Shown here: piece after piece, positions 2,847 to 45,829 of the stretch
Layout: each line of letters begins with the position of its first letter
Numbering within the stretch: the first letter of the stretch is position 1
Source: a phage
Strand: one strand, 5' to 3'
Sequence record: PZ151149.1
DNA length: 64,000 bases
Notes under the pieces: generated by a model
What the model saw: the letters and a program-made list of their open reading frames with translations, nothing else
What the model was told of the DNA's origin: nothing
Databases searched by the model: none
Made by a program: the position numbers and the translations under genes

Positions 2847-2885
2847 AATAATATTATTCTAATAACCGTTTAAGGATTTTATAAA

Positions 2886-5800
2886 ATGGCAGATTTAAGC
2901 AGAATCCAATTTAAACGCACTAGCACTAAAGGTCGTAAACCTGATGCTAGTACGATGTATCCGGGGGAATTAGCAATCAACCTTGCGGATCAATACATGT
3001 TTACTAAAAATGATTCGGGGACTCTCATCAATTTAAGTTGTCCTCCGGTGTATAACCGTGACGTTGTAATGGCGGGTAAGGTTAAAGGAAATGATTATAT
3101 TTTAAGCAAAACCGCTAATTATTTTGAAGACCAAACCGCGCGAGATCTTAATTATTTTGGTGCGTTTCGACCGAATAATGCTGATGGTTGGTCTAACTTG
3201 ATTCTGAACATTCCTCACCCCAGCGGTAAAGCACACGGTCGCGGGTTTGAATTTCAATATGGTTCTAGTTCCTCTCAGGTTAAAACCTATGGCTTTGATA
3301 AAGATGGTGCTAAGCGATTCAGCTTTCGCATGTATCATGAAGGTGATAAACCTACCCCATCGGAATTGAACGTTTACAGCAAACAAGAAGTTGATCGCAT
3401 GTTTGTTAAAAACGTTAAAATGTCAACTCCTAGCAGTGCAACAGGGTATTTCAAAATTGCTACCGCTATGATCCCACAGCAAGGAAAAATGGTATTTATT
3501 CGTATCTATGGTGGTAATGGATACAACGTTAACTCTCCGACTCAAGTTGATTTTGTAGAAATCGTGATTCTTGGTGGGAATGGAAATCCTAAAGGTGTTA
3601 CTGTTGCTGCATATCGAAGAAATTCTTTAAATCAACTTGAAGTGTTTGCTATTAATACATCCGGTGACAACTATGATATCTACGTAAAATATGGTCGGTA
3701 TACCGATAATGTTATTGTAGAATTTGGTAAAACGGTTGGTGTTAATTTAACTGTTCATGATGTTCCAGATTTTTCGGAAGCAAAACCTGCTGGTACTACC
3801 TTTGAAGGTCGTATTATTACCATGTTTAATACTGAAAATAAACGAGGTTCTTTGTATTTCGATCAAAACACGCAAGAGACTTATGATATTATCAGTTTGT
3901 GTGACTATTCAGGTACTGGCAAAAAATATATTCGTAAATTCCGCAGTGGACCAAGCTACGCAATCTGGCATGAAACTGTTCAAGACGACACATATCGTCT
4001 ATCAACTGGTACTACCGATTCTAACGAAGTTCTACGAATCACAGGTCGTACCATGTATACCGGAAAACTGGTAGTGGATGCAGGAAGTAATGCTATTCGT
4101 ATGCTGCGACCTACCGGACAAAGTAACTATCTGGAATATGTGGATAATCGCAACGGTGCTAGCAAGCGTCAAGGATGGATCGGTTTTGGTAGTATTGAAA
4201 ATGATAACTTCCAATGGTATAGCGACGTAGGTAAAAACTCATTACAGTTAGATACTACTGGTCAAATATCATTAACCACAGGTGCAACAAAAATTGTATA
4301 CGCTAATGGTCAATATGTATCGGCTAACTCTGATGCGTATCGTATGATCTACGGTAATTATGGTGCATTCTGGCGTAATGATGGTGCTAGCGTTTATCTT
4401 CTGTCTACTGCTGAAAATGACAAATTTGGTGCTTGGAATACCTACCGACCGTTTATCTATAATTTAGTATCTGGAGACGTTAAATTAGGTGGTACTAACA
4501 CCGCATGTTGTTTGTATCTGGGAATTGATGGTAGTACCCGTATCGAGGATAAATTAGTTTTCAGGGCGGGATCTCGTCAATCAATGGACTACTTAGAATT
4601 TGTTCATTGGGGGGCAAGCAATACAGGTCGAAATAACGTTTTAAGTCTTCGTGACTCAAAAGGATTTTTAGCAGAATTTGAGCGTAAAGGTGATAACACC
4701 ATTCAAAATACATTCTTCGGAAGATTTAAAGTCAATGGTGATTCTAACGCTATTACCATTAATGCTCCTACTGATTCTGATGCTGTTTATGTGAAAGGTA
4801 CTTGTAATGATGTAGATAACTGGTATATCGGTAAAGGTGGTGCTGGTAATGGATTAGTTTTTTGTAGTTATAAGACTAATGCGGCTGTTCATCTCACAGA
4901 TAATGGTGAGGTTTTATTAGCCCCACAAAACACCGCAATTGTTAACATCAATCGCGACCGTATACACATCAACGGTACACAGTGGGTGGCAAATCAGCCA
5001 CATGGCTGGGGTAATCAGTGGCTGTCCGAAGCTCCTATATTCGTTGATTTTGGTACTGGTGTTCCATATGATACCTATATGCCAATCATTAAAGCCCGTA
5101 GCCAAACTGCTGGCGGTTATGCAACTAAGGCCGATTTTGGTATATATCGTCGTGGTGCTGGTGATAATTGGGGTTGGGGTGATGCTGTTATTCGTGTCGG
5201 TTCTGCCGAAAGTGCCGATTCTTCACATCCAAATGCTAGATTCATGTTCCAAGCAAATGGAGATTTTAGAGCACCTGCTGGCCTCCGTGCTGGTGTTAAC
5301 TTGGGTGTTGGTACTGATCCTGCATTGGGTGGACATTCTATTGCTATCGGTGATAATGACACTGGCTTAATGTGGGGTGGTGATGGTCGTATTAACCTGC
5401 TTGCTAACGGACAGCATATTGCGTCATGGGGTGTTTTCCATCAAGAACATCCTGGGCTATGGTCTGTCGGTGCTGGGTTCTGGACAGAAGTCGATAAAGC
5501 GATTATTTCTCACGGTCACTTGATTCAGGCGAATGACAGCTATTCTACATATGTTCGTGACATTTATATCCGTTCGGATATTCGCGTGAAGAAAGACCTA
5601 GTTAAATTTGAAAATGCATCTAAGACACTTTCAAAAATTAACGGTTACAAATATCTTCAAAAGCGCGGGACCAATGAAGACGGTAGCGAACGTTGGGAAG
5701 AAAACGCTGGTTTGATTGCTCAGGAAGTTCAAGCTATTTTGCCGGAATTGGTTGAAGGCGATCCAGATAGCGAAAACCTTCTTCGTTTGAACTATAACGG

Positions 5801-22691: not shown

Positions 22692-24083
22692 TCAAATATA
22701 GTCTACTCGATACCTCGCACGGGTAACACCCACATATAATAACTGCATTGCCAATTCAAAGTCAACATTGTCTGTACACATGCAAGGAGTATACAGGAAC
22801 ACGCGGTCTACGCTGATCCCTTGTGACTTATGAATGGTGCAAGCTGGTAATGCTTTTACATTCAAGAACATACGCTTCATCGTCCAGAATGAATCCCAAT
22901 CTGGTTTAAATTTTGGATTCTCTTTCTTCATTTCGCGATATTGTCCGGCGACCGTATTCAGATAGATAGAGAAAATGTTCTTCTGACGTTGTTCTGTCAG
23001 AATGTTGATTTCTACTAAATCCGGTTTATCTGTAGTGATTCCGACTGCATCTAAACCGACTTTCTGATTTAGGATTTCTTTGTCTTCGTCATCATCGACG
23101 CTTTCCACTTTCAGAGTATAGCCTAAAACTGGTTGCGGATCGACCCCCGTGCAACGTAATATAAATTCACGCGGGATGACCTCTTTAACTCGGATCATCT
23201 CACCATTGTTAAAAATAACATTGGGAATCTTCTTCCCGCGTTCATCTCGCAGATATTCGATCAATGGTTCCTGAGTAACCAGAATTTCATCTACAATCAC
23301 TGGTTCATCGGTGTTATAAACGCGCTTACGTACAATTTCATTGAGTTTTTCGACGCTCTTGTTAGTGTAGGCCAGAATACGGTTTTCTAGAAGGTCTTCC
23401 GGCGTTTTAACGGTTTCGAAATAATGCTTCATAAATTCCGGCAGAGTTGAGCTATGGAATACACCCTCGTTACCGCACTGCTTTTCGAATACCCATTTAC
23501 CGTTACGGACAGCGGTCGCCACATCAATGATCGGTGCATTAGATCGTTTAATTTCTGTCAACTCCACGTTTTGAAAATTTTCATCCGTGAAGAAAGGAGA
23601 AATTGACGTTGCACCGCTCGGATCAACTGGTCGTAACTGGTGCGGATCGCCAACTGCAATAACAACAATTCGACCGTTGATACTCTTCATGAGAATATCA
23701 AATAACTTCTTATCGACCATACTCGCTTCATCAACAATGATGATCTGAACATCATCTAGCTTAGGAGTATCTTTTTGCTCAAATACTTGAGTATCTTCAT
23801 AGTTGGTCGGGTTTAGTCGCAGTAGTGCATGTAAAGTAAATGCTTGACGACCTACCGCTTTACTCAAAACTTTTTTAGCTTGGTGGGTAGGCGTTGCCAA
23901 AACCACACCAGTTACACCACGGCGGACCATTTCCTGAACAATGAATTTCATCATTGCGGTTTTACCAGTACCCGCCGCACCACGGACAGTTGTATGCTTC
24001 TTTTGTTCAATGCGTTTCATTAGAACATCAAAAGCATGTTTTTGCCCGTCTGTCAACATATCGAAAGTTAATACTCTGCTCAT
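22692..24083 (-). CDS. dda: DNA helicase Dda (SF1)
   Basis: 463 aa; Walker A GAAGTGKT; blocks TFD.LT.GQK.AF, ILA.PTH.AKK.LSK, RSNAPIIDVAT.VRNGKW, LYVGVTR match T4 Dda. Confidence 0.9.
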   Translation of the reverse strand: MSRVLTFDMLTDGQKHAFDVLMKRIEQKKHTTVRGAAGTGKTAMMKFIVQEMVRRGVTGVVLATPTHQAKKVLSKAVGRQAFTLHALLRLNPTNYEDTQVFEQKDTPKLDDVQIIIVDEASMVDKKLFDILMKSINGRIVVIAVGDPHQLRPVDPSGATSISPFFTDENFQNVELTEIKRSNAPIIDVATAVRNGKWVFEKQCGNEGVFHSSTLPEFMKHYFETVKTPEDLLENRILAYTNKSVEKLNEIVRKRVYNTDEPVIVDEILVTQEPLIEYLRDERGKKIPNVIFNNGEMIRVKEVIPREFILRCTGVDPQPVLGYTLKVESVDDDEDKEILNQKVGLDAVGITTDKPDLVEINILTEQRQKNIFSIYLNTVAGQYREMKKENPKFKPDWDSFWTMKRMFLNVKALPACTIHKSQGISVDRVFLYTPCMCTDNVDFELAMQLLYVGVTRARYRVDYI

Positions 24084-24397
24084 TATCCTAAAATCCTCAC
24101 CTTGCGAACACAGATAGTATTGAGTTCTCGCCGTACCCGTTCTTTTTCATATTCAGGAATTTTATATTCGATACCATCCCGAACAATTTCAGAAGACCGG
24201 ATTATGCCAAATTTTCGTTTAGGTACAACCTTGTATTTCGGTTCACCTGCCAATAGACTCTCACAATAATCTATCTGATCACACATTGACGCTAACGCAG
24301 CATCATGTGTTTCGCAAGTTAGGACGCGACCTTTCGCGTCCACTGAGTATTGAAAGAATCCGTCTTTATCACGATAACATACAGCAAATACATGCAT
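24083..24397 (-). CDS. hypothetical protein
   Basis: 104 aa; start overlaps the dda stop region. Confidence 0.5.
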   Translation of the reverse strand: MHVFAVCYRDKDGFFQYSVDAKGRVLTCETHDAALASMCDQIDYCESLLAGEPKYKVVPKRKFGIIRSSEIVRDGIEYKIPEYEKERVRRELNTICVRKVRILG

Positions 24398-25152
24398 TAT
24401 AAACCTACCTTCGCTTTCATCAATTCAATCCACGACGCATCAATCGGAAGCCCGTATTTCACGCGTTCTTTTTGTGCTGGCGTTAAGTTCTCATACTTAG
24501 AAAGAGATTCAATCAAAACGCTGGTATATTTTAGCACGATTTCGGTATTGTTTGCAATAGCCTTAAGTTTTTCTTCTTTCTTGTTGATTTCGCTAAGGGC
24601 TTGCTTGAGATCTGCAATTTTCTGATAACGTTCTTCCATACGGAAGAGAGTATTTTTAATCGCTCTCTCGGCTGCCTCTGCTTTCTCCGGTTCGTTGTGC
24701 TTTTTGTGGCGCTCGATTGCTAATTTCTTTTCTTCGATTGCCATTTCCTGATTTTTGATGCGATTCTCGTTAAGTTCGATCCACTCGATGTACTTCGCAC
24801 GTAGGGCAATTTCATCATCAGAAAGTTTACCGTTAGTTCCTAGTTCCTGGATCTCTTTAAGAGATTCGATAGTGTGATTACCACGGAAAGAATTGTATTT
24901 CAGTTTAACTGGAATCACATTGCCATCAACATATCCCAGATTGCAATCAATACGCTCTAAGGAGAGTCCATCATCACCTTCACCAAACTCCTCACCTGAA
25001 TATGCGCAATGAGTCTGGCGATAGATGTTACGCACAGTGACTAAGCTCATAGAGAAGTCTTTGTTACGACGAGAAGCGCCAGCCATGATAGAGTTCAGAC
25101 GGAAAACAACCAGCGCCAATTCTTCGTTAGATTTAAAAGCAAACAGTTTCAT
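24397..25152 (-). CDS. hypothetical protein with C-terminal coiled coil (Srd-like by position and size)
   Basis: 251 aa; N-terminal Cys/Gly-rich segment, C-terminal E/K-rich heptads; position corresponds to T4 srd; no sequence match verified. Confidence 0.5.
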   Translation of the reverse strand: MKLFAFKSNEELALVVFRLNSIMAGASRRNKDFSMSLVTVRNIYRQTHCAYSGEEFGEGDDGLSLERIDCNLGYVDGNVIPVKLKYNSFRGNHTIESLKEIQELGTNGKLSDDEIALRAKYIEWIELNENRIKNQEMAIEEKKLAIERHKKHNEPEKAEAAERAIKNTLFRMEERYQKIADLKQALSEINKKEEKLKAIANNTEIVLKYTSVLIESLSKYENLTPAQKERVKYGLPIDASWIELMKAKVGL

Positions 25153-25179
25153 AATTGATTCTCCTTAGTTGGTATGTGT

Positions 25180-25211
25180 GTATTATTGTCTATCTGGTTT
25201 GTGTTGTCAAC
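25180..25211 (-). promoter_or_regulatory. early promoter (sigma70-like)
   Basis: TTGACA, 17 nt, AATAAT/TAATAC; followed by AAGGAGAATCAATT-ATG. Confidence 0.5.
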
Positions 25212-25213
25212 AC

Positions 25214-25717
25214 TTAAATTAAAGAAAATTTGTAAATCTCTATCAGGTCGCCATTGCACGCGTAAACTTCCTCAATCTCATCAAGGATCATGGTCGTCCC
25301 TGTCTTGTATATGCACTCGCGCTCATCCGCCAACATAGCATACAAAGACAGTCGAGTAGTCGGATTGTCATATTCTTTAGACACCACTCGGTCAATAGCA
25401 TGTTCGTAATAATTCATGCAAGGCTTGGTGGGTTTTATTGCAATAATCTTTCCTGTTGCATAAACATCGGTTGCAAAGTCCTCTGCTGTTGATTGCAGTG
25501 GCGTAAAGCTCATAGGACGCTCTACAACGAAAGAATCGCCTACAATTAAGGTATCCAGCTTACGACCTTCTCTTTTGCTCACACCGCGATACAAGGCTTC
25601 GTGATGCACTAACCGCTCAGTCTTTTCAATCAATCCATTAAGGATCGACATATCGATATTTTCTTTAGAGTTCATCACTTCATCAATGATGTTAAGTTCT
25701 TCTGGTGTGAATTGCAT
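25214..25717 (-). CDS. hypothetical protein, possible ADP-ribosyltransferase (Mod/Alt-like)
   Basis: 167 aa; candidate R-S-E triad (YRG, QST, ERE) and position next to dda as for T4 modA/modB; motif-level only. Confidence 0.5.
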   Translation of the reverse strand: MQFTPEELNIIDEVMNSKENIDMSILNGLIEKTERLVHHEALYRGVSKREGRKLDTLIVGDSFVVERPMSFTPLQSTAEDFATDVYATGKIIAIKPTKPCMNYYEHAIDRVVSKEYDNPTTRLSLYAMLADERECIYKTGTTMILDEIEEVYACNGDLIEIYKFSLI

Positions 25718-25724
25718 AATAAAA

Positions 25725-25780
25725 AAGCCTCCAATCTTTCGACGGGAGGCATAATAAAACCATGATAGAGTAGTGTCAAC
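25725..25780 (-). promoter_or_regulatory. early promoter plus 5'-UTR hairpin containing the SD
   Basis: TTGACA (25774-25779), 17 nt, TATTAT; then GCCTCC-cgtcgaaagatt-GGAGGC hairpin whose 3' arm is the GGAGG SD of the gene starting at 25717. Confidence 0.45.
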
Positions 25781-25798
25781 TATAAAGTGTATGTGATC

Positions 25799-25806
25799 TA
25801 TAAATA
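25799..25806 (+). promoter_or_regulatory. T4-type late promoter TATAAATA
   Basis: Exact TATAAATA about 30 nt upstream of the endonuclease ATG at 25837. Confidence 0.5.
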
Positions 25807-25836
25807 AGTTTGTCAGAACTAAAAGGAGATCACAAA

Positions 25837-26766
25837 ATGAACTATAAACGTATTTATGATAACCTGATTGAACGTGCTAAGACTAGAACTATCGACGGAT
25901 ATACAGAAAAGCATCACATCATACCACGTTGTATGAATGGAAGCGATGATGATAGCAATCTAGTTAGACTCACCCCAGAGGAACATTACATTGCTCACCT
26001 TCTGTTAGTTAAGATTTACCCAGATAACAGTAAATTGGTTTATGCTGCAAATATGATGTGCGTTTCTTCTGATTCACATAATGGAGAAAGACAGTCAAAT
26101 AAACGTCATGGTTGGTTGCGTAGAAAAATGGCTGAGGCACATAGTAAAAGAATCCGCGATAGAATGGAGAACGATCCTGAATATAGAGCTAAGGTTTCGG
26201 AATGGGCTAGAAAAATGGGTAAAGCCATGAAAGGAGTTAAGCGAGGACCGGAATTTAGCAGAAAGTTGGCAGAAAGAAACAGAAATACCGTGATGAAAGA
26301 AGAAACTAAACGTAAAATCGGGGAAGCCAACAAAGGAAGGAAACGTACAGAAGAATATAAAAGAAAACATAGTGAGCGGTATAAGGGTGAAGGTAATCCG
26401 ATGTATGGTAAACGAGGAAAGGACCATCCGGCATATGGTACTAAACCGTGGAACAACCAAACATCATTTGTTGAGCAGAAAGCATGGTGGCGGTTCGCTG
26501 GCATGTTCTATGACTGGTATCAGATGGATATTGACCGTGGGAAACATAAACGCCACGGTCATAAAAGAATGCTTGATGAATTGGGTTTTGTTGGTTGGCG
26601 AGAAAAAGAGCCAGCCGCAGCAAGACGATCAATTGAAATGTTTGCTAAAGGCTGGAATCCTTATGAAGACCAAGAATGGTTAGATTATATTAATACCCGC
26701 TTTCCAAACGACGATAGTTTTCCGCGTTCTTCAACATATACAAAACAAACAAATCCTTTGCAGTAA
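25837..26766 (+). CDS. free-standing HNH homing endonuclease
   Basis: 309 aa; AAGGAG SD; HNH core KHHIIPRCMNGSDDDSNLVRLTPEEHYIAH; repeated basic GK/RG segments; only plus-strand gene inside the minus-strand array. Confidence 0.8.
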   Translation: MNYKRIYDNLIERAKTRTIDGYTEKHHIIPRCMNGSDDDSNLVRLTPEEHYIAHLLLVKIYPDNSKLVYAANMMCVSSDSHNGERQSNKRHGWLRRKMAEAHSKRIRDRMENDPEYRAKVSEWARKMGKAMKGVKRGPEFSRKLAERNRNTVMKEETKRKIGEANKGRKRTEEYKRKHSERYKGEGNPMYGKRGKDHPAYGTKPWNNQTSFVEQKAWWRFAGMFYDWYQMDIDRGKHKRHGHKRMLDELGFVGWREKEPAAARRSIEMFAKGWNPYEDQEWLDYINTRFPNDDSFPRSSTYTKQTNPLQ

Positions 26767-27214
26767 GACCTAATGCTAGGAATTTACACATAATAAAATG
26801 GAGTTGGTCCACCGCCTCTAGGTATGTTTCTAGACGATCCGCCTCTGGCAAATCACTAAAGAGGCGGTTTCGTGCTTCCATGTGATTTGCTTTCCAGTGT
26901 TTCCATACCGCGCTCGCGTCCTTCCCGTTAGACATTCCACCTAATGAAGTATACAATTCTCGTGTTTCGTCGTCAAGAGCATTATCATTCGCTCGAATAA
27001 AATCTAAAATTTCTCCACACGTTTTCAATTCGTCAATTTTTGCCACCCACGGACGGTCCTTAGACACCTGATCCTGTAACGCTTTTTGCATATTCATCAT
27101 GTGTTGGAACGGGTTATCACCGTTGGCGATGATTTCTTTATATTTTTCTTCTGCAAAATTCAGAGTTTCCGCATTTACTAAGTGTGCACAAGAATTAAAT
27201 TCTGACATATTCAC
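26690..27214 (-). CDS. probable nucleotide pyrophosphatase (gene 56-like, MazG-type)
   Basis: 174 aa (T4 gp56 171); N-terminal EFNSCAHL block resembles remembered gp56 start; position between 61 and mod-like gene fits T4; 3' end overlaps the endonuclease 3' end by 77 nt. Confidence 0.45.
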   Translation of the reverse strand: MNMSEFNSCAHLVNAETLNFAEEKYKEIIANGDNPFQHMMNMQKALQDQVSKDRPWVAKIDELKTCGEILDFIRANDNALDDETRELYTSLGGMSNGKDASAVWKHWKANHMEARNRLFSDLPEADRLETYLEAVDQLHFIMCKFLALGLTAKDLFVLYMLKNAENYRRLESGY

Positions 27215-27222
27215 CTCATTAA

Positions 27223-28251
27223 TTAAAATTTACAATATTTCATAAACCGCATTTTAGCCATCAGACCTTGTACGGTGTTTTCTTTGATGTATTCCATGAT
27301 CTGGTCGCGTGTAGCTCCCTCGTCCTGAATCATGGCGTTAACGTCTTTAGAATGCCACGGGCAACGGTCCCACAAAACAATCTTTTCCCCTGCATTGATA
27401 AACTTTTCCAGTCGGTGCATTGTATCGGCAGACCGTGGTTCGGCGTCAAGTACAAACACTCGCTGGTCTGGGAAAGGGATTTCATCTAATCCCAAAGTAC
27501 CGCCAGTAATTGCACACCCGTTATCAATAAACAATGAATCGATCGGACCTTCTAAGAAATACACTGGTTTACTCGGATCAGCACGTTCAAGACCGTAGAC
27601 CTTACTCGCTAACTCATGAGTTTTAATCGTCATATATTTGGTCTTTCCGTAATCCTTTCTCAACGCTCGCCCCTGAATGGATTCTATCTTGTTCTCGCGG
27701 TTAAAGATAGGAATCACTAAACGCGGTTCAGGTTGTGGATTCTTGAAGGTATCAGCTTTAATGTGATTTGCTACCTTTTGCCATTCTCTCGTGAAATACA
27801 GAAGATCCCATTTATCGTGAGGGATGCAACGATCACTGACATACTTTATTATAGGATGATTAGCCGGAAGAGTATCTAATCTCTCGCAGAAAGGCAATGT
27901 TTGCACTTTCTTAATCTCCGGCTTTTCTACCTTTTTCAGTGGCTTAAACGTGGTGTTCTTGTGGTCGCCTTGTTCCTTCCGTCGTTCCATAAGCCATTCC
28001 CTGAATAGGTCCGGCTTATATTGTTTAAGAAATTCACCTAACGGCTGATTGTAGTTACAGTTGAAACAACCACAACGCAAACTATCTTTGTAGGTATAGA
28101 TACGGAATCGCGCTTGAGTATGATTTTTCTTTGAGTCACCGCAGATCGGACAACTACAGACCAGCGTAAATGAGCTAGTATGCAACCGTTTAAAATTTCG
28201 TTCGCCGTATATGGCTTTTTCCGCTATTTCATAATCTGCGTAGTAAATCAT
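27223..28251 (-). CDS. 61: DNA primase
   Basis: 342 aa, same length as T4 gp61; N-terminal zinc ribbon CSCPICGDS...CFNC; TOPRIM-like acidic motifs. Confidence 0.85.
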   Translation of the reverse strand: MIYYADYEIAEKAIYGERNFKRLHTSSFTLVCSCPICGDSKKNHTQARFRIYTYKDSLRCGCFNCNYNQPLGEFLKQYKPDLFREWLMERRKEQGDHKNTTFKPLKKVEKPEIKKVQTLPFCERLDTLPANHPIIKYVSDRCIPHDKWDLLYFTREWQKVANHIKADTFKNPQPEPRLVIPIFNRENKIESIQGRALRKDYGKTKYMTIKTHELASKVYGLERADPSKPVYFLEGPIDSLFIDNGCAITGGTLGLDEIPFPDQRVFVLDAEPRSADTMHRLEKFINAGEKIVLWDRCPWHSKDVNAMIQDEGATRDQIMEYIKENTVQGLMAKMRFMKYCKF

Positions 28252-28260
28252 AATAACCTC

Positions 28261-28464
28261 TTATAGCTCAAATTTCATGAAAGTTCCAACACTTTCATTT
28301 TCATTCTCTCCGTTTTCATCTAAGCCAAATTTGTAGACACTACCATCTGGCGATGTGTAAGAGAATACACGAAAACGGCCTACCGGATCAAGTTCTGTAA
28401 ATTCATATTCTTTTCCGGCTTCAAAAAGTGCATATGTGCTTTTAAGACATTTCATCGTAATCAT
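28261..28464 (-). CDS. hypothetical protein
   Basis: 67 aa ORF. Confidence 0.45.
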   Translation of the reverse strand: MITMKCLKSTYALFEAGKEYEFTELDPVGRFRVFSYTSPDGSVYKFGLDENGENENESVGTFMKFEL

Positions 28465-28784
28465 TTAATCGCCACCGATAACAGAATGAGAACTACACCA
28501 ACATACATTGTGATCTCGGATAACTTTTCTGTTTTTGTTTTGTGTCCAGATAATCCGAAAACAACAACACCGATAATAGCGGACAGCAAGCCAACGATAA
28601 ACATGATGATACTAAGCACCGTCTTTCTCCTTCTTGCGTTTTTCTTTACCCACTACGCTAGGTCCACGATTGGTAATAGATCCGCTCGTTTCCCCTGCTG
28701 CGATCTTCTCAGGATTGCCGCCAGCATCGCCAGCGGTCATATCTTCTTTGAGTTTATTTTCTTCAACAAACTGTTTAAAGCCAA

Positions 28785-29162
28785 TCATAGAATAATCTCT
28801 TTCAGTAGGTCAACAATCTGGTCTTTCGTCAGTTTATCCTGATTCTCTACAATCTTGATAACACAAGCATTAACATCTTTTCGAGTAACGCGGGAGATCG
28901 TTTTAATACGATGAAACGGTTCGTAGAAATATACTGCTTCATTATAGAGCGCAGCAATTTTTCGACGCATTTGATCTTTATCTGACAAGAAAACAAGTGC
29001 TGTTTTATGACCTTCTACACCCGCCACGTTATATAGTTCAGCAACACCCCAGCGACCTTCCGGTTCAATCATTCCGGCGTGTTTACCGTCGATAAAAATA
29101 AGAATATCTCCGTTGAATGCGGTTTTGAATGCTACATCTTCCGGCGTAATCATATTTTTCAT
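28785..29162 (-). CDS. hypothetical protein
   Basis: 125 aa ORF. Confidence 0.5.
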   Translation of the reverse strand: MKNMITPEDVAFKTAFNGDILIFIDGKHAGMIEPEGRWGVAELYNVAGVEGHKTALVFLSDKDQMRRKIAALYNEAVYFYEPFHRIKTISRVTRKDVNACVIKIVENQDKLTKDQIVDLLKEIIL

Positions 29163-29192
29163 AATATAGTCTCCTTAGAGTTTCATTATAGA

Positions 29193-29828
29193 TCAAGCGA
29201 ATGTAGAAAGCAAATGTTTTGTTTCTTTCAGTTGTCGTTCAAGATCTTTGCGTTTCTCTTTAAGTTGCATTTTAGCATTATTTCGCTGTTTTTCAACATC
29301 TTTATCAATACTCTTATTCCAGTTATCAATATCAGAATAAGTTGGCATACCCAATTCTAGACCTAATGCGGTTGGATACAAGGTAACAGTCCATAAACCG
29401 CTAATCTTCTTAAATAGGTCGGGGTGTAGTGTACTATCTACATCTTCCGGTGTCAACTCTTTTTCTTCTTTCAGTGGTGGGATCTCGTCATATGGTTCCA
29501 GTGCATTTACTTTAATGTCAGATACCTCATCAAAGAATCCGCGTACATCCGCAGGAAATACACAAGCAATTTCCCAACCGTGATCACGCAGAGAAGTAAT
29601 ATTTTTCACTCCCCCACCATGTGTGATGATTGATGTGACATTGCCATCAAGGTCCACCGAATTTACGAGAAATGGCTTATCGTCTGTCAGATCATTATAA
29701 AACTGTGCTTCGGCTGTAGTCATCTCCAGAAACAGATCTCGGATCGGACGACCATCAGGTGCGTTACCTTCCTTGAGAGTATAAAAGCGACTTACGATCC
29801 ATTTTGGCGGTAAAGCATTAGCGATCAT
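29193..29828 (-). CDS. hypothetical protein
   Basis: 211 aa ORF between primase and helicase genes. Confidence 0.5.
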   Translation of the reverse strand: MIANALPPKWIVSRFYTLKEGNAPDGRPIRDLFLEMTTAEAQFYNDLTDDKPFLVNSVDLDGNVTSIITHGGGVKNITSLRDHGWEIACVFPADVRGFFDEVSDIKVNALEPYDEIPPLKEEKELTPEDVDSTLHPDLFKKISGLWTVTLYPTALGLELGMPTYSDIDNWNKSIDKDVEKQRNNAKMQLKEKRKDLERQLKETKHLLSTFA

Positions 29829-29878
29829 GTTATATCTCCTATCAAATCATTCACCAGCGCCCCGCAGGGCGCATTTTA

Positions 29879-31291
29879 TTAGAAAGTCATGTTATTTGCT
29901 AGCTCGTCGAGTTTTTCTCTTTTCTCGGCTTGCTGTGCGCTTTGTGGTTTAACTTGTGCATTCTCCTGATCTGCGATCTGGTTTGGTACTTCATACCAAC
30001 GCTGATTGCCTTTCTTCACACCAACGTTAAACCGTGAATAATAGTTCTTATCACCGTAACGAGACTTGATCTGCTTCATGAGTTGGACGCCCATTTTAGC
30101 CAGGTCTTCGGTTTCGATAACACCCAACATAAAGTCGGCAGTAGCCGGAAGACCTGCTGATTCAGCGGTATCACTCATGTTAAGGTCGGAAGCATCCCAA
30201 CCCGCGCGGGTAGTCTGTGCCGCAGTCCAACCAACAACATCCCACTTAACAAAAAATCCTCGCAGTTCTTCCGCAATCGCCTTAACTAGTGTGTAACTAT
30301 TTTCAGAGTATACACGCAAGCGAGACGATGCGCAAATCCCCAGATAGTCAACAATCACAACATCAGGTTTAAACTGTTTCTTGAGTCGCAATTCATTCAT
30401 TAACGCCTCAAAGTGATTGGAGTTTGCGCCACCCGTCGGATACTGCTTGATCATCAATTTTCCAACCGGACGATCTCCGATCTTCTTATTCTTAACACGC
30501 TTCATACGTGCGGAATATTCCGCAAAAGAAACATTACCATTATCCAATTCATCTAATGTAATGTCAAGCAAGTTTGCGTCGATACGTTTGGCTACGACAT
30601 GCTCTGCCATCTCCATTGAGATATACAATACATCATAACCACATTCCATATAATCCGCAGCAAGAGAACACAAGCCCAATGATTTGCCAACGTTTACACC
30701 AGCAAGCAACACATTTAGCGTTTTTCTTTCCGCACCTCCTTTCGTGATTTTATTCAACATCGGCAGCTTAAACGGGATCTTATTCGCCTTAGTCTGATAT
30801 AGCAAGAATCGTTTTTCAAAGTCATTAAACCAGTCATGACCTACATCAGAATCAAACGTAATGGATAGTGCTTCCTGCATGATCTCAGGAATAGCACCCT
30901 CACTCGGCAATTTCTTATTCTGTTTCTCTTTTGGTAGTTGTGCGTTCGCCTGAATCTCTAGCGCCCGTGACATTGCATTATACATAGCGCGGTCACGAAT
31001 AAATTTTTCGGTTTCCTTCATTAACCAATCAAGGTCTTCCGGCGTATTCTCCAGCGAATCGAGAAGAGTTTTAGCCCCTTCATATGTTGTCTGATTGCCT
31101 CTCTCCTTGTCTAAAGCAATCTGTAATGCAGTTGGCGTAGGAATATTGGAATATTCGTCTACGTGCTTTTTAATCAGCTTATAAATCAGTTTTTCTTCGT
31201 CTTCGGTGAAGTAGTCCGCTTTAAGATGAGGCCATACATTCGTAAAGAATGCGCCATTGTAAATCAACTGTGAAAAGATAGTTTTAATCAT
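29879..31291 (-). CDS. 41: replicative DNA helicase (DnaB-like)
   Basis: 470 aa; Walker A LLAGVNVGKSLGL; RecA-like C-terminal domain; order 61-41-uvsX as in T4. Confidence 0.9.
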   Translation of the reverse strand: MIKTIFSQLIYNGAFFTNVWPHLKADYFTEDEEKLIYKLIKKHVDEYSNIPTPTALQIALDKERGNQTTYEGAKTLLDSLENTPEDLDWLMKETEKFIRDRAMYNAMSRALEIQANAQLPKEKQNKKLPSEGAIPEIMQEALSITFDSDVGHDWFNDFEKRFLLYQTKANKIPFKLPMLNKITKGGAERKTLNVLLAGVNVGKSLGLCSLAADYMECGYDVLYISMEMAEHVVAKRIDANLLDITLDELDNGNVSFAEYSARMKRVKNKKIGDRPVGKLMIKQYPTGGANSNHFEALMNELRLKKQFKPDVVIVDYLGICASSRLRVYSENSYTLVKAIAEELRGFFVKWDVVGWTAAQTTRAGWDASDLNMSDTAESAGLPATADFMLGVIETEDLAKMGVQLMKQIKSRYGDKNYYSRFNVGVKKGNQRWYEVPNQIADQENAQVKPQSAQQAEKREKLDELANNMTF

Positions 31292-31605
31292 ACATAGCCC
31301 CCGACTACACGCATAACAAAGGTCTTGAGTTTATACCAGAAAGTTTCCTTTTTCAACTTTTCTTCTGCTTCTTTGATCTGCGCGGTTAACGCCTTAATGA
31401 CGTGAGGATATACCACATCACGATCTGACGGCGTGGAGTAGTCGACCACAATACCTTTAGTGTCTGGATCGTATTCAACATTATGAATATAGACAATATG
31501 ATGCTCTCCCTCTTCATCAACAATTATCAATTCCTGAATAACTGTCTTCATTGCTTCTTGAATCAAGCTGTGTGCTTCTTCTAAACTTGTTGGTTTCTTA
31601 TCCAT
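31288..31605 (-). CDS. hypothetical protein (gene 40 position)
   Basis: 105 aa; start overlaps gp41 stop (ATGA). Confidence 0.5.
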   Translation of the reverse strand: MDKKPTSLEEAHSLIQEAMKTVIQELIIVDEEGEHHIVYIHNVEYDPDTKGIVVDYSTPSDRDVVYPHVIKALTAQIKEAEEKLKKETFWYKLKTFVMRVVGGYV

Positions 31606-31625
31606 AATATAATCCTCTCTAGATA

Positions 31626-31650
31626 TGAAAAAGGGGCACGTAGCCCCTTT
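31626..31650 (-). terminator. rho-independent terminator after uvsX
   Basis: Minus strand AAAGGGGC-tacg-TGCCCCTT then TTTTTCA. Confidence 0.55.
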
Positions 31651-31660
31651 ACTACCATTG

Positions 31661-32731
31661 TTATGCTAACATATCTTCGATTTCTTTGTCAACTGCTTCG
31701 TCGCTGATCACTTGCCCCAGCTTATAATGATCGTTGATTGCTTCGTTGAACTTATCGTTTGTCAGAAGTGGTTTCCAGAACTCAATGCTATTGGTTTCTT
31801 TAGCACGGAACTTGCGTTCTTCGGTTTCCATCTCTCCGGTCTCAATATTCAGGATTGAACGAGAATACCAGCCGTTTGACGGTTTCACTACCCAACCTAA
31901 CTCTACAGCCAATTCCAGCAAGCCAGAATAAGGATCGATACCACCGCTAAATGTTACGCTAATCGGGAACTTAGATTTTTCTTTAACGGTTCGTGATTTT
32001 TCCGCATTCAGGATAAAATCATAGCCAGTAATTTCGGTTCCTTCTTTCTGCTGACGACGACCAATAATGAAAACTTCATTGGCTGAATACATCGCGCCCG
32101 TACCGCCGGACATAACGGTCTTACTAAACATTTCTTGCGTTTCGTAAGTGTGGTTAATAGCGATGCACGGGATATCATTCATAGTCAGATACGGCGTAAC
32201 CATACGGAACAAGCCTTTAAGTGCTTTCGCTCGCGTCATATCCTGTGCGGATTTCTCATTAATCGCGTCTTCAACTTCTTTTTTACTTGCTAAGTTACCG
32301 ATTGAGTCAATAAAGATGATCACTTTATCTTCACGGGTAATTTGCTCAAGCTGGTTCATGATTTCAAATTTAAGTTCTTCGATGTTCTTGATTGGAACAT
32401 GCACTACGCGATCAGGATCTACACCCATAGATTCAAGATAAGCGGGTGTAATACCGAACTCAGAATCAAAGAACAAACAAGCCGCATCTGTATTCTGTTT
32501 CATGTATGCACTAACACAAGTTAATCCCATGTTTGATTTAAAGTGCTTAGACGGACCAGCAAAGAAAATCAGACCAGATTGAAAGCCCTTTTTAAGATCA
32601 CCTGAAAACGCAATATTCAGCATCGGGATCTTAGTGCGAGTATTTGTTTTTTCGTTAAAGAAGCTGGATTTAGACAGTACCGCAGTAGTTTTCAGGGTAG
32701 AGTTCTTTTTCAGTTTTTCCAGTACAGACAT
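31661..32731 (-). CDS. uvsX: recombinase UvsX (RecA-like)
   Basis: 356 aa; Walker A GPSKHFKS; long blocks FDSEFGITPAYL.SMGVDP.RV, NHTYETQEMFSKTVM.GGTG, KSRTVKEKSKF match T4 UvsX. Confidence 0.9.
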   Translation of the reverse strand: MSVLEKLKKNSTLKTTAVLSKSSFFNEKTNTRTKIPMLNIAFSGDLKKGFQSGLIFFAGPSKHFKSNMGLTCVSAYMKQNTDAACLFFDSEFGITPAYLESMGVDPDRVVHVPIKNIEELKFEIMNQLEQITREDKVIIFIDSIGNLASKKEVEDAINEKSAQDMTRAKALKGLFRMVTPYLTMNDIPCIAINHTYETQEMFSKTVMSGGTGAMYSANEVFIIGRRQQKEGTEITGYDFILNAEKSRTVKEKSKFPISVTFSGGIDPYSGLLELAVELGWVVKPSNGWYSRSILNIETGEMETEERKFRAKETNSIEFWKPLLTNDKFNEAINDHYKLGQVISDEAVDKEIEDMLA

Positions 32732-32742
32732 TATTAATACCT

Positions 32743-32970
32743 CTATTCAGTTAATCCGTAATACTTTAATTGCTTCATTGTTATTCGATCTTTGTAGTGC
32801 TCTTGAATTAACTTTTTCATCGCACCAACATCGATCGTCACAAATACTTCGTTGCTGTGATTTCCGTGAACTTTCTTGAAATGCTCTATGCCTTCCTCAC
32901 GTTCACGTTTAATCTTTTCAATGTCTCTCATCGTATATTTCTCACAACGGCGGGTATCGTCACCCAACAC
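32743..32970 (-). CDS. hypothetical protein
   Basis: 75 aa; the only ORF between uvsX and gene 43. Confidence 0.45.
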   Translation of the reverse strand: MLGDDTRRCEKYTMRDIEKIKREREEGIEHFKKVHGNHSNEVFVTIDVGAMKKLIQEHYKDRITMKQLKYYGLTE

Positions 32971-32992
32971 CCGCCATTATACACACTTTATC

Positions 32993-34469
32993 TTAAATGT
33001 CAAACAGGTCTGTAAGAGATGCCACTTTTTCATATTGCAGCTTTGCAGCCGTGGTAATGTTCTCCAGTGGTTTGACGAAAGTCTTATTAAACAACAAAGG
33101 CCAGTCTAACCACTTTAACACCTCTGATTCAATTTCTGGTGGAATACGAGTACCAGACAACCAGCCAAAACAGATTTCTCCAAACGGATTTCGATCTTTC
33201 AGCGGTACGATCATAACTTTCTCGCCTTCGCGGATCGGATCTAGTCCATATTTGCGAGCATTGCGATTATAGCACAATACACTCTTAACCGCATACGGAC
33301 AACCCTTAATCGGATACCCGTTTGAATCGCTGTATTTCTGTAGGTTGTTTGCAGATGACACCGCAGCAACCTCAAGATAGTCAAGTTTTCTAAATTCTTG
33401 CTCAAAAATACCGTAGTATTCCTGCAATGACTCTTCACCTTCCTGCAACATACGACGAATACATTCTTTCAGTGATTTCTGACATGCTTTAGGGGTGGAG
33501 CTACGTTGCGTTTCCAAGCCCATGATTTTTAGCTTAGGTTCAGCAAAGCGCGTTCCTTCCATATCCCAAACATTAAGAGCATAACGCTTTTTACCAGTCC
33601 AGAATCCACCGATACCCGCAGATTTCAACGGAGGACCAGCAATTGCCTCGCGGTCCATAAACATCAAGTGCTCATAATTGTTCATGTACTCGCATAACTC
33701 GCGATATCCTTTGTCGATAATCGGTTCCATTCTATGTTTACCGAAATTATCAAGGAAGTCAACAAGTTTTTCGGTATCGTCGAAACGATCTTCCCCGCCA
33801 ACCTTATCAACAACATTGTTAACCAGCACATAAACGGAGTCAGTATCACAATAACGAACATATGCAAAATCGGTTGTTCCGCAAAGCTCGTTTAAGTATT
33901 CGTTAATCTTACGCTCAATCCACTGAATTGCAAGCTGACCGAACAAGGTGATCGCACTAGCGTTACGGAGATCATAAAAACGGAATTTAGGATTCCCCAA
34001 CGCACCATAAAGGGAGTTGATCAAAACTTTTCGAGAAAGCTGGTTTGTATTGCACAAGATCGACTCGTCTTTACATTCTTCCAGCAATTTCTCTAAGGCA
34101 TCTTTGCTTAATTCCGAAAGCATCGATTTAAACGCTTCATCGAAGTCATGACGCACTTCAACGCTATAGCTAATGGTTCCCCCATAAACATGATTTTCAT
34201 CGTGTAGAATCGCTTTACATAGTTCAGCATTGCGATCACATGCCAACATCATGTTTTTGTACTGCTTACGCTGATCGAATACCTTTTTAATCTCAATCGG
34301 TACGATACCATGAATATCTTTTCTATACATCCATCCGTTAGGCGAGCAAGAATACTCATCACTCGGACGTGGTGCAGTTTTATTGATATACTCGTGCATC
34401 GGTGCAGCATCAAAAGATCCAGCGATTGTTTCCGGCGAAATGTTAACCTGACGGATGATTGATGGATAC
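32993..34469 (-). CDS. 43: DNA polymerase gp43, exon 2 (C-terminal part)
   Basis: Homology to T4 gp43 runs upstream of the track ATG through YPSIIRQVNISPET to the proposed 3' splice site at 34469/34470; C-terminal clamp-binding tail SLTDLFDI. Confidence 0.8.
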
Positions 34470-35583
34470 CATTATGTTCAGCGCGGTTCGCTACTCCCGC
34501 GCCCGTTCTCTTGCGAACTGCTACATGTCACCATGTAGATCAGACTATATCACATTCTCATAGAGAATCCTGCCATTTCGAATCGCTTGATTCTACTCTA
34601 CTCGGTTCGTTACCCTTTCGATAGTCGTTGAACAACTGCATCTTTAAGCTCATTTTGATCAAACGGTGTTCTCTTACAGTATCCGCTATAATTCTTAGCA
34701 AAAGGTTTCTTCTTACCAAAAATCTCTTTTCCTGAATTGTGTGCTTCAACAAGAAAATTCACCATTTCATCAAATGTGAAACTTGCAAATTTAGCATAAG
34801 TTTCATTACGTTTTGACATTATTTTACTCATAACTTCCGGTCGTTTAGACGCTGAATTTTCGCGTTTCTCGCCAGTATTAAATGATACCAACTCACCGGA
34901 AACATATCTAGGATCATCACAACTAACTCTAAACCGATTTCCTTCCTTATCCTTAACGATAACAGTATTCTTTAGCTTTTCTGCCATAGAATCAAGACCT
35001 TTTCGTATAGTGTCCTCATCAGCCCCGAAATATTTCTTTCCGCTCATATCGGTTCTGGCTTTTCCGGTCTTGTTTTCGGATATTTTCAGTCTAACTTCCT
35101 CTCGCTTGGCTGGGTTATTGTCTCCAGCGAATGCATCTTTGGTTAACGCCTTCACTTTATCGTCATAAGATCCTCTAGAGATGAAAGCATATGCTCTCTT
35201 GCATTCACCGTTATTGAATATTAAGCACAATAACCGATGCGCCTCGACGTGGTCTTCAAACTTAAGCCTAACAAGATTCCATTTATCTAACCGATATTCA
35301 GGGAACATTGACTTCGGGCATATATGATGCACCTCGGAATATTCTTCACCCTGATACGGATTAGACACCAGTTTAATGTAGTCGTTTAATGCTTCCTCGT
35401 TATGTATTTCGTACTTTCTTAAAATGTCTTTCATCTCGCGCCTCCAATGTATATCAATATCTATATACATTATAAGACACGTTAGCTCAAAATGCAACTG
35501 CTGCTGATTGTCTCCTTAGAGATTTCCCAGCAATTAAGCAGGTTATTCGATCACTGTCACCAGTGAAAGCCCCATATCAGTTT
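34470..35583 (-). mobile_element. probable group I intron in gene 43 carrying an HNH endonuclease ORF
   Basis: 1114 nt between residues that are contiguous in T4 gp43 (LTSL|YPS, polymerase motif A); stop codons in the gp43 frame; 5' exon ends in U, insert ends in G; GGGG 10 nt into the insert can pair with exon CCCU (P1-like). Confidence 0.6.
34610..35434 (-). CDS. intron-encoded HNH homing endonuclease
   Basis: 274 aa from the ATG at 35434 (GGAGG SD); HNH core EVHHICPKS...WNLVRL...EDHVEAHRLL; GDNNPAKR motif. Confidence 0.75.
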   Translation of the reverse strand: MKDILRKYEIHNEEALNDYIKLVSNPYQGEEYSEVHHICPKSMFPEYRLDKWNLVRLKFEDHVEAHRLLCLIFNNGECKRAYAFISRGSYDDKVKALTKDAFAGDNNPAKREEVRLKISENKTGKARTDMSGKKYFGADEDTIRKGLDSMAEKLKNTVIVKDKEGNRFRVSCDDPRYVSGELVSFNTGEKRENSASKRPEVMSKIMSKRNETYAKFASFTFDEMVNFLVEAHNSGKEIFGKKKPFAKNYSGYCKRTPFDQNELKDAVVQRLSKG

Positions 35584-36785
35584 AGGGAAGTAAGGTCAAA
35601 GCTCATCATCCAACGGTAAGCATTCGGCACAGGTTCTTTTACAAATGCGCCTGGATACGTCTGCTTAGGCTGTATCTTATTTTCCGGTACTACTTTACCC
35701 TCTGCTTTCAGAGATCCGAAGATAATAGCATCCCATACTTTCATCGGATTATAAACATGGTTAAATTTAATCTTTGCATAGAAACATAGGCTATACACCA
35801 GATCAATAAAACCACGCTTTTTATCAATCGCCAGCACACGGTCAACGTCGCCGATGTTATAATCGATGTAAAGTTGATGGTTGTCATCACGCAATTTCTT
35901 TAATGGACCATCATAATCAACCTTACCGATTCCTGTCTCATATTCAGCAACATAATCTAATGCATATGTTGGTTGAGTCGTAAAGCTAAATTTCTTGTAC
36001 AGGTCAATATAATCAAGGCTTTCGATCCCCATGATCGTAAATGCTTCACGCTCATTGCCAAAATCATCCTGTGAGATTCGGGATTTAATCTTACCGCACG
36101 GGCTTAATCGGTTTGCCGTTCGACTTCCAAACTTATTACTGATACGCTTAATGATATACGGGATATCGAATGTTTCTGTGTTCCAGCCAGTGAAGCCAAC
36201 TGGTCGGTTTTCCTCAAAGAATCGGATGTATTCTAATAGCAATTCATCTTCTGTATCATAGACGTTATAAACAACGCGCTCTACAATATCAGGTCGAAGA
36301 ATAGATTTGTTTGCTTCCCAGATTTCACCGTTTTTTCCTTTCAAATCAAATACAAAGAAACGATCATGTACGGAATCATAATGCGTAATTGCATCGATAG
36401 GATATTTCGCCTCTTCTGGTTTAGGAAATTCCGGTGCGGTGACCTCAATATCAACCCACGCTACACGGATTTTATTTCGGTCATATCGAATCTCACCTTT
36501 ATATGCATCAGACAGATAGGAGATGATAAAATCATCCATACCTAGTGCCTCTTGCCCCATTTCCCCCATCCTTTTACGCCATTTGTTGGCCTCGTTCATA
36601 GATGGGAATTTTTTAGCAATGCAAGGCTTGCCATAGATATCTTTATAATTTGTAACCATACCAGGCGCGGCATGATGAAATAATGTTGGCGTATATTCAA
36701 CGTAACGCTCTTGTTCTTGTCCAGCATCATCAATATAACGCTCGTAGATCTTATCACCTACTCGCTCACATGACAGAAAATACAT
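35584..36785 (-). CDS. 43: DNA polymerase gp43, exon 1 (N-terminal exonuclease and start of polymerase domain)
   Basis: Start at ATG 36785 (AAGGAG SD; track start was GTG 36815); MYFLSCERVGDKIYERYIDD aligns with the T4 gp43 N-terminus; ends in motif A ...FDLTSL. Confidence 0.8.
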
Positions 36786-36817
36786 AATATAAACTCCTTC
36801 ACTTACGAAAGACACTC

Positions 36818-36856
36818 ATTATAGGGGAATCGACTTAGTTTGTCAATACCCCTATC
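36818..36856 (-). promoter_or_regulatory. promoter upstream of gene 43 with the -35 inside a hairpin loop
   Basis: TTGACA, 17 nt, TATAAT on minus strand; inverted repeat ATAGGGG/CCCCTAT encloses the -35 and spacer. Confidence 0.5.
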
Positions 36857-36867
36857 CCATCAGTATC

Positions 36868-37230
36868 TTATCGCCCGATCTGATATTTCTCGATCAGAGT
36901 CCACTCTTCTTTCTGTTTAAAAGACAGTACACGGAAATTATTAACTTCGGTAGTTTCAAAATCACTATCAATCAGGGTACACAGATTCCACTGCGCAAGA
37001 AGTTTTGCAATGTTATTACGGCGCAATTCATCTTCCCACGTCATCTTAACACTACGACCATCTAATTTCAACAACTCCTTGAAATGAACGATGTAATAAC
37101 GCCCCTTCTTCTGGAGAATATGACAAGACTGATACAGCGTCTTGTCTCGATTGTTGGCAATGCCGCAGCGGGTTAAAGTCTCCTTAATTTTAAGGAAGTT
37201 TTCAGGATTAATCAAATTAATTTCAATCAT
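36868..37230 (-). CDS. regA: translational repressor RegA
   Basis: 120 aa (T4 122); near-identical blocks MIEI.L..PE.FLK.KETLTR.GIANN.DK.LYQSCHILQKKG.YYIVHFKE. Confidence 0.9.
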   Translation of the reverse strand: MIEINLINPENFLKIKETLTRCGIANNRDKTLYQSCHILQKKGRYYIVHFKELLKLDGRSVKMTWEDELRRNNIAKLLAQWNLCTLIDSDFETTEVNNFRVLSFKQKEEWTLIEKYQIGR

Positions 37231-45078: not shown

Positions 45079-45312
45079 TTATTTTACCTCTGGGATATAA
45101 TCAATTATTAAAGAAAATTCATCTTCTGATACATTATAGCTATGTGAGATTGTACCCGTAAAGACCTCAAGATCCGGTGATTTGATATTGCAAGGATCGA
45201 TAATCACCGGAACGCCGCAATCTCTCAAAAATAATTTGGCGAAATACGGCACGAGGTCAGTTTCAAACTCTGCTTCTTCCAGCAAACGGGAAATGTTAAT
45301 TTTCAATCTCAT
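45079..45312 (-). CDS. hypothetical protein
   Basis: 77 aa ORF. Confidence 0.45.
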
Positions 45313-45829
45313 AAAATTGGTCCAGGCTAGGCAATTCCTCGGTCAATACATCTTCAACCTTTGGCGCTTTCGGTTTATTGACCGATTCCTCGTAGTTGTT
45401 GATTTTATCGTAAATGTCCTGTATGAATGCCTCATCCGCAATCTGGCACATATCAGCGTCGCGTTCGTCATATACATGATGCACAAAATATTTGTATTTT
45501 GCGGCTGTCGCTGTTCTCTCTTTTTTAATGCGCTGTACAAAAGCATTAAAGCACGCTTGCGTGATGTAAGCATGAGGATTTTTATACTTTGTCTCGTCAA
45601 AATTAATCAAACCCTTGACCGCCGCTTCGATTCCGTCGTCGATCATTTCTTCGCGCCATGTTTGACTATAACCAGAAAAGTTAAAACGACGTGATAGATT
45701 TTTAGAGATTTGCATAATTGCTAGGCCGATTTGATCGCTCATTGGAACTTGCCGACCTTCTGCTGCAATTTGTTGTTTCCAACGGCAAATTTCTTCGTAA
45801 AGCTCTTTATTGTTTACATAATCAGACAC
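45296..45829 (-). CDS. 55: late-transcription sigma factor
   Basis: 177 aa, GTG start with GAGGG SD; long blocks [51 protein letters not shown] and FIQDIYDK...YEES match T4 gp55. Confidence 0.9.

Follow-up and report, generated by a model that had tools for sequence, protein, structure and literature searches.

A putative mob-type HNH homing endonuclease gene linked to a divergent gene 56 allele in a Krischvirus genome

The 64,000-nucleotide stretch of sequence record PZ151149.1 that was analysed here (the window) belongs to a Krischvirus (RB49-like), a T4-type phage. Between modB and gene 56, on the plus strand at 25837-26766, it carries a free-standing gene of 309 amino acids (aa), assigned to the HNH/NUMOD3 homing endonucleases from PHROG and Pfam matches and from its orthologues. 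The product is probably an active homing endonuclease of the mob-type HNH kind, with gene 56 of endonuclease-free relatives as the DNA that it nicks or cuts. The gene belongs to a recognisable family, its catalytic motif is intact, purifying selection acts on it, and close relatives differ in whether they carry it. It lies in a replaced segment with sharp borders, is completely linked to one allele of gene 56, and occupies the same position beside gene 56 in several genera. By analogy, nuclease activity and a biased inheritance of the gene would be expected.

The initial annotation had proposed a comparison of the locus in related phages with and without the gene, and this comparison showed that the gene is carried by some close relatives and absent from most. 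The open reading frame (ORF) was found in 3 of the 59 phage records matching the flanks, namely G37-3 and two records of JSE, and was absent from the remaining 56. The gene is similarly polymorphic in Slopekvirus, where 22 records carry it. The orthologue in JSE (EpJSE_00015, 'Homing endonuclease', ACL77964.1) shares 92% protein identity with the window protein, and that in vB_EcoM_G37-3 (G37_3_00018, 'putative HNH endonuclease', QBO64613.1) shares 96-98%. The endonuclease gene itself is thus not new, as it is already annotated in both phages, and a review puts the number of mob-like HNH genes in JSE at two (PMC2993671). The JSE and G37-3 copies resemble that of the window in locus, strand, a 77-nucleotide (nt) overlap with gene 56, the promoter motif and the linked gene 56 allele. 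JSE differs in a 3-codon deletion and in a diverged stretch at ~25910-26110, with 68-88% DNA identity, and its left junction is shifted by about 20 nt. No paper specifically on this gene was found, and the JSE and G37-3 orthologues are without experimental characterisation in the searchable literature.

The borders of the region that differs between carriers and non-carriers were placed by aligning the window with RB49, JSE and G37-3. Relative to RB49, a block of ~1,403 bp at 25783-27185 stands in place of ~504 bp, and the flanks are 96-100% identical to RB49 up to 25782 and again from 27186. Inside the block, the endonuclease gene has no RB49 counterpart and gene 56 is 46-70% identical to that of RB49. 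Gene 56 of the window (dCTPase/nucleoside triphosphate pyrophosphohydrolase; 26690-27208, minus strand; PHROG 173, E 6e-33) is a divergent, endonuclease-linked allele with about 55% DNA identity and 57% protein identity to the RB49 version. Its product is 53-55% identical to the Slopekvirus gp56, which is about as distant as the RB49 gp56. The left junction, at 25782/25783, adjoins the -35 element of the modB early promoter (~25763 in JSE, ~25779 in G37-3), and the right junction, at 27185/27186, falls at about codon 8 of gene 56, within codons 1-8. As read from this alignment, the difference between carriers and non-carriers is a 1.4-kb replacement and not a clean insertion. The initial annotation had described a recent mobile-endonuclease insertion; the presence and absence of the gene among relatives upholds its mobility, whereas the replacement of a whole block and the old pairing with gene 56 described below do not agree with a recent clean insertion.

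The linkage between the endonuclease and this allele was complete. In the phage collection, gene 56 alleles at least 95% identical to that of the window were present only in JSE and G37-3. Where the exact gp56 sequence of the window was searched for in metagenomes, the convergent endonuclease ORF was present in 8/8 of the assemblies listed, at the same 77-nt overlap; seven of these contained the full 309-aa ORF, and in the other the ORF was truncated by the contig end. Neither in the phage collection nor among the metagenome assemblies listed was the window-type allele found without the endonuclease. A third gene 56 allele, 63-66% identical to that of the window, was observed in a related T4-like lineage (L013, 3519-5454; L014, 1443-2575). 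In that lineage, genes for a Mom-like protein, a Tad2-like protein (weak match) and an N6/N4 methyltransferase are located between gene 56 and modB, with no endonuclease, which suggests that the junction between gene 56 and modB is more generally a variable site.

The same endonuclease lineage was identified at the same position in other genera. The next-best homologues (37-44% identical) are from Slopekvirus (phT4A), Acinetobacter phage AB-Navy-v2 and two metagenome T4-like lineages, and all of them lie directly 3' of gene 56 and convergent to it. The adjacent gp56 proteins are 39-57% identical to the window or RB49 versions; the presence of one endonuclease lineage at the 3' end of such divergent genes in several genera indicates that the pairing is old. 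The proteins of phT4A (ANN86289.1) and AB-Navy-v2 (CAL4858177.1) share the HNH and C-terminal domains of the window protein at 39-44% identity, and both genes have the T4-type late promoter motif TATAAATA upstream. Unlike the window gene, the AB-Navy-v2 gene has no overlap with gene 56, while the Slopekvirus copies are 219 aa in length, contain few NUMOD3 repeats, share 7 nt with gene 56 and are linked only to a ~130-150-nt divergent patch. In phT4A, TATAAATA is situated 210 nt upstream of the endonuclease gene, with a small ORF in between; the insert (L004, ~2791-3000) contains TATAAATA, a Shine-Dalgarno sequence and this unannotated ORF of ~60 codons ahead of the endonuclease gene. Distant homologues in the Ackermannviridae occupy other sites, between nrdA and nrdB or between endolysin and phoH genes, and are on the same strand as their neighbours. 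The HNH domain of the window protein is 61-67% identical to gene-56-linked and other-site homologues alike, whereas for the C-terminal domain the identity is 33-52% with gene-56-linked copies and only 26-28% with other-site copies. The similarity of the C-terminal domain thus tracks the gene 56 site and that of the HNH domain does not, which fits a role of the C-terminal domain in target choice.

An independent replicate of the pattern was observed in Slopekvirus. The carrier phT4A differs from the non-carrier KP27 by a ~890 bp insertion and by a 75%-identical patch covering the final ~130-150 nt of gene 56; elsewhere the two are ~100% identical. The divergent tract linked to the endonuclease therefore comprises the whole of gene 56 in Krischvirus and its last ~130-150 nt in Slopekvirus. 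Three states were observed in Slopekvirus. About 22 records combine the endonuclease with patch A, at least 5 phages have patch A (at 97-99% identity) and no endonuclease, and the majority have patch B and no endonuclease. All three are expected from a cycle of homing in which the target side carries a resistant or co-converted tract, and they make the 3' part of gene 56 the likely target. A search for a cleavage site, as sequence common to the endonuclease-free alleles and lost in carriers, localised the divergence in Slopekvirus and defined no site.

The Slopekvirus comparison also bears on whether an active endonuclease might instead have its target in the intergenic junction between modB and gene 56, or elsewhere, with the gene 56 allele hitch-hiking as donor sequence. 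The empty site of RB49 is very compact, with only ~8 nt separating the end of gene 56 from the -35 element of the modB promoter, and free-standing endonucleases can cut at a distance from their insertion site (PMC2988022). However, the left flank in Slopekvirus is 100% identical up to the insertion, and all of the linked divergence is on the gene 56 side. The intergenic sequences are, moreover, unrelated between genera whereas the 3' coding sequence of gene 56 is conserved, so a target in the coding sequence would better explain why the site has been kept. We regard a target outside gene 56 as unlikely, although it deserves some weight.

The assignment of the protein rests on several concordant matches. 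It matched PHROG 655 ('homing endonuclease') with an E value of 3.7e-78, and Pfam NUMOD3 (PF07460) at residues 167-192 with 28.7 bits against a cutoff of 20.4 (E 1.3e-6). The N-terminal region was 48% identical to the HNH domain of T4 MobE over 107 aa (E 2e-29), which places the protein among the mob-type enzymes. No GIY-YIG match was obtained in Pfam or PHROGs, where only HNH-type families were matched. The homologues of the protein number about 2,600. The canonical HNH core and the basic repeat segments reported in the initial annotation were both borne out, the latter by the NUMOD3 match above cutoff. The core, HHIIPRCMNGSDDDSNLVRLTPEEH, comprises residues 26-50; in an alignment of 38 homologues, H26, H27 and N41 were nearly invariant and H50 was invariant. 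A profile built from the 38 homologues aligned residues 21-50 to the HNH motif of McrA (E 0.0015).

An AlphaFold model (AF2) of the endonuclease had a predicted local distance difference test score (pLDDT) of 85.8. The model places a strand at residues 24-27, a second strand at 42-45 and a helix at 47-60, a beta-beta-alpha arrangement with a pLDDT above 94. The N-terminal mob-type HNH catalytic domain (aa 1-95; 25837-26121, plus strand) was delimited from the MobE identity, the conserved motif and the model. It is followed by basic helical repeats forming a NUMOD3-like linker (aa ~114-192; 26176-26412, plus strand; from Pfam and the model), in which four successive basic helices are modelled at residues 114-131, 138-149, 155-165 and 172-181. 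The number of repeats differs between homologues, and the Slopekvirus copies are without most of them. The C-terminal helical domain (aa 193-288; 26413-26700, plus strand), with four helices in the model, is the probable target-recognition domain. The remaining residues form a non-homologous C-terminal tail that is antisense to the 3' end of gene 56 (26701-26763, plus strand), with homology ending before it. Alignments to homologues from outside the genus extend to residue 284-288, where the gene 56 stop codon lies, and the end of the tail in the model (residues 301-309) has a pLDDT below 50.

The endonuclease ORF runs from an ATG at 25837 to a stop codon at 26764-26766. The longest mechanical ORF begins at a TTG at 25810; the homologues, however, all start with MNY or MDY at the ATG. 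An exact match to TATAAATA, which would serve as a T4-type late promoter, is present at 25799-25806 on the plus strand, 30 nt from the ATG, and a Shine-Dalgarno sequence, AAGGAG, that is kept in relatives lies 8 nt ahead of the ATG (25823-25828, plus strand). Three further points of the initial annotation, namely an exact late promoter about 30 nt upstream, a 3' overlap of 77 nt with a convergent gene-56-like ORF and a sole plus-strand gene within a minus-strand early array, were confirmed in full: the overlap is exactly 77 nt (26690-26766), and from 8150 to 63561 the endonuclease gene is the only credible plus-strand ORF of 90 aa or more, the others being on the minus strand. A second plus-strand ORF at 45182-45694 was rejected as spurious, as the opposite strand encodes the late sigma factor gp55. 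Over 25900-26700 the GC skew and the AT skew both reverse in sign, in line with coding on the plus strand. The gene lies between other genes, outside any intron or intein and with its own TATAAATA motif and Shine-Dalgarno sequence, and a scan of 24000-37000 against Rfam gave no family, and hence no intron or structured RNA associated with the gene. Its description as a free-standing HNH homing endonuclease opposite to the early genes accordingly stands.

The motif TATAAATA occurs twice in the 64-kb window against 5.95 +/- 2.28 occurrences in shuffled sequences, and is thus rarer than expected. Both copies are on the plus strand just upstream of plus-strand ORFs, and none is on the minus strand; by count the motif is no more frequent than chance, and by position it exceeds chance. 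Its scarcity in the window would agree with counter-selection of stray late promoters within the early region. TATAAATA also precedes the ATG by 27-38 nt in JSE, in G37-3 and in seven metagenome copies (fetched via the window-type gp56), and likewise in the gene-56-linked homologues of AB-Navy-v2 and of two metagenome lineages (L007 and L009); in three of the gene-56-linked homologues from other genera the distance is 27-34 nt. The phage encodes a homologue of gp55 at 45296-45829, and with the upstream motif this suggests late expression of the endonuclease gene.

The transcript may end at a candidate terminator hairpin within the antisense of gene 56 (26839-26867, plus strand), where an 8-bp GC-rich stem is followed by TTTCGTGCTT. 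The hairpin has a predicted energy of -19.2 kcal/mol (z -2.5), whereas the equivalent RB49 stretch is unfolded (z +1.0), and the G37-3 record annotates a terminator at the equivalent position. The loop is long and the T tract poor, and a simple scan called a different small stem, so that termination at this hairpin is suggested only weakly.

Selection on the endonuclease was assessed from the window, G37-3 and JSE. The ratio of non-synonymous to synonymous substitution rates (dN/dS) was 0.09-0.12 for the endonuclease and 0.01-0.02 for the linked gene 56 allele, as estimated from these sequences, indicating that both are under purifying selection. The ORF, TATAAATA and the Shine-Dalgarno sequence were intact in 10/10 complete copies examined. 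A function of the 77-nt overlap for the endonuclease was considered and rejected: 4/4 polymorphic sites within it are synonymous in gene 56 and non-synonymous in the endonuclease, and from this pattern we consider the overlap incidental.

The synonymous divergence (dS) was 0.24-0.62 for the linked gene 56 allele and 0.10-0.29 for the endonuclease gene, compared with 0.03-0.17 for the flanking genes dda, srd, modB and gene 61. The blocks of the window, G37-3 and JSE are, in addition, mosaics of one another. The higher dS within the block than in the flanks, together with this mosaicism, does not fit a single recent insertion. The results are consistent with a pool of diverged, inter-recombining blocks, in a backbone that would be homogenised by exchange with the endonuclease-free majority. 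Among the metagenome copies, nucleotide diversity across the block was only slightly above that of the flanks; as these copies were chosen by exact gp56 sequence, this speaks neither for nor against the higher dS.

The block could alternatively have been acquired by ordinary homologous recombination, or by recombination between early promoter/stem-loop (PeSL) elements, from an unsampled T4-like phage, the endonuclease being a passenger that is idle on Krischvirus targets. On the left, the block is bordered by a PeSL-like cassette upstream of modB (25727-25779, minus strand), comprising an early promoter (TTGACA-17-TATTAT, 11/12 matches) and a hairpin (25750-25727; -15 kcal/mol, z -4.4) with a T run directly after it. 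PeSL promoter/terminator cassettes have been described for RB49 and phi1, where they are proposed to act in module shuffling, and the elements at modB and srd match this class (PMC2839356). The variability of the region 3' of gene 56, with the Mom-like, Tad2-like and methyltransferase genes of the related lineage, and the low frequency of carriers are also in its favour. The right border, however, is inside the coding sequence of gene 56, in codons 1-8, with no PeSL there, and the 14-nt spacer between genes 61 and 56 has none either; the block is thus not a module bounded by such elements. Nor would a passenger be expected to evolve under purifying selection, to be intact in all complete copies or to keep the same site in several genera, and the Slopekvirus pattern is better accounted for by co-conversion. 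Taken together, such a module swap appears distinctly unlikely. That the nuclease has been domesticated to serve the phage, by excluding competitors or in late DNA processing, and is not mainly a mobile element is very improbable: the strong purifying selection, the dedicated late promoter motif and the marker exclusion that homing endonucleases cause between T-even phages (PMC2988022) would agree with such a role, but the gene is absent from most Krischvirus and Slopekvirus genomes and is hence dispensable, and exclusion of competitor markers is a consequence of homing rather than an alternative to it.

For homing on gene 56, the following sequence of events is proposed. Transcription of the endonuclease gene would start late, at its own TATAAATA promoter, and run opposite to that of the early genes. 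On co-infection with an endonuclease-free relative, the DNA of the relative would be nicked or cut, most likely in the 3' part of gene 56, with the HNH domain cutting and the NUMOD3 helices and the C-terminal domain recognising the site. Recombination-dependent repair would then copy the endonuclease gene together with the cleavage-resistant gene 56 allele ('intronless homing'). In Krischvirus, repair could resolve only in the nearest shared sequence, that is, in the modB promoter and in the first 8 codons of gene 56, because the gene 56 alleles differ throughout by ~45% in DNA. Such forced resolution points would produce the sharp borders and the complete linkage, and would cause the endonuclease and gene 56 to move as a 1.4-kb block.

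Several observations weigh against this proposal. The Pfam HNH match, at 16.5 bits, is below the gathering cutoff of 21.4. The structure searches gave no significant match to a solved homing endonuclease: a single-sequence search of solved structures returned chance matches only (E above 0.03), the profile of the 38 homologues reached only the HNH motifs of McrA and a group II intron maturase, and a Foldseek search of the whole model against the PDB had no match at E <=0.001, the weak matches being to HNH domains. The literature search returned no cleavage, nicking, transcript or inheritance data for the protein or its close homologues, and the putative target within gene 56 is placed only by where the sequences diverge. 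The donor lineage of the gene 56 allele was not found; the nearest others are 61-66% identical and come from genomes without the endonuclease. The endonuclease is also rare in Krischvirus (two deposited phages and the window). An efficient gene drive should be more common, except where co-infection seldom occurs, carrying the element has a cost or the enzyme cuts RB49-type targets inefficiently.

A number of further features were noted in the window and its relatives. Upstream of srd, a near-consensus sigma-70 early promoter (TTGACA-17-AATAAT) is present at 25182-25210 on the minus strand. The Srd anti-sigma factor homologue itself (24397-25152, minus strand) has weaker matches, over residues 20-170, to PHROGs of HNH endonucleases and of endonuclease VII. 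Gene 43, encoding the family B DNA polymerase, is split on the minus strand into an exonuclease part (35577-36815) and a polymerase part (32993-34399). The gap of ~1.18 kb contains an intact-looking 295-aa HNH ORF (34610-35497; PHROG 12434, E 2.5e-131), which is a distant paralogue of the gene-56-linked endonuclease. No Rfam group I intron was identified at threshold in the gene 43 region; a putative intron with a truncated endonuclease gene is mentioned for gene 43 of JSE in a review (PMC2993671). In three metagenome relatives that carry the endonuclease (L015, L018 and L021, ~897-1453), an extra ORF of 142-184 aa with a weak NUMOD4 match is located just upstream of gene 61. This ORF is absent from the window, where a 67-aa ORF (28261-28464) directly adjoins gene 61, and the spot seems to be a further variable site for endonucleases.

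T4-like phages commonly carry free-standing HNH endonucleases. The value added by the present locus is the block with its xenologous gene 56, the fidelity to gene 56 across genera and the parallel with SegF of T4. It provides an example of an endonuclease gene kept with a complete and strongly divergent allele of its neighbour, and would illustrate how whole genes might be replaced between phages by homing. The fidelity to one site across genera, with the similarity of the C-terminal domain following the site, constitutes a data set on the target specificity of modular enzymes. As JSE (carrier) and RB49 (non-carrier) are both in culture, the prediction is directly testable by a cross.

Of the known systems, the closest in sequence is T4 MobE, a free-standing HNH endonuclease that nicks nrdB of T2 and is inherited at high frequency (PMC2790892). 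Like the window gene, mobE is free-standing, stands beside a gene of nucleotide metabolism and has a divergent or co-converted linked flank (PMC2790892). MobE differs from the window protein in its size (141 aa) and in having neither the NUMOD3 repeats nor the C-terminal domain. In addition, mobE lacks a promoter, shares its strand with the neighbouring genes and is transcribed together with nrdA (PMC2790892), whereas the window gene has its own late motif and is on the opposite strand.

The closest in position is T4 SegF, a free-standing GIY-YIG homing endonuclease encoded between soc and gene 56 that targets gene 56 (PMC2988022, Table 1). It shares with the window gene the niche directly 3' of gene 56, the same presumed target and a resistant neighbouring allele, while the catalytic families, GIY-YIG and HNH, are unrelated. 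segF shares its strand with gene 56, with which it has an 11-nt overlap and a common transcript (PMC2988022), whereas the window gene is convergent. SegF is thus a functional analogue and not a relative, the resemblance being in position and presumed target only. The presence of an unrelated endonuclease in the same niche suggests that gene 56 is a preferred target. We tentatively raise the possibility, which we hold with less than even confidence, that gene 56 is a recurrent homing hot spot used by two unrelated families, the GIY-YIG enzyme SegF in T4 and the HNH lineage in Krischvirus, Slopekvirus, Acinetobacter phages and others. The Krischvirus endonuclease might then be a vehicle that swaps in a foreign gene 56, 43% different in protein, as a self-propagating block of cutter and resistant target whose linkage is enforced by the missing homology inside the gene.

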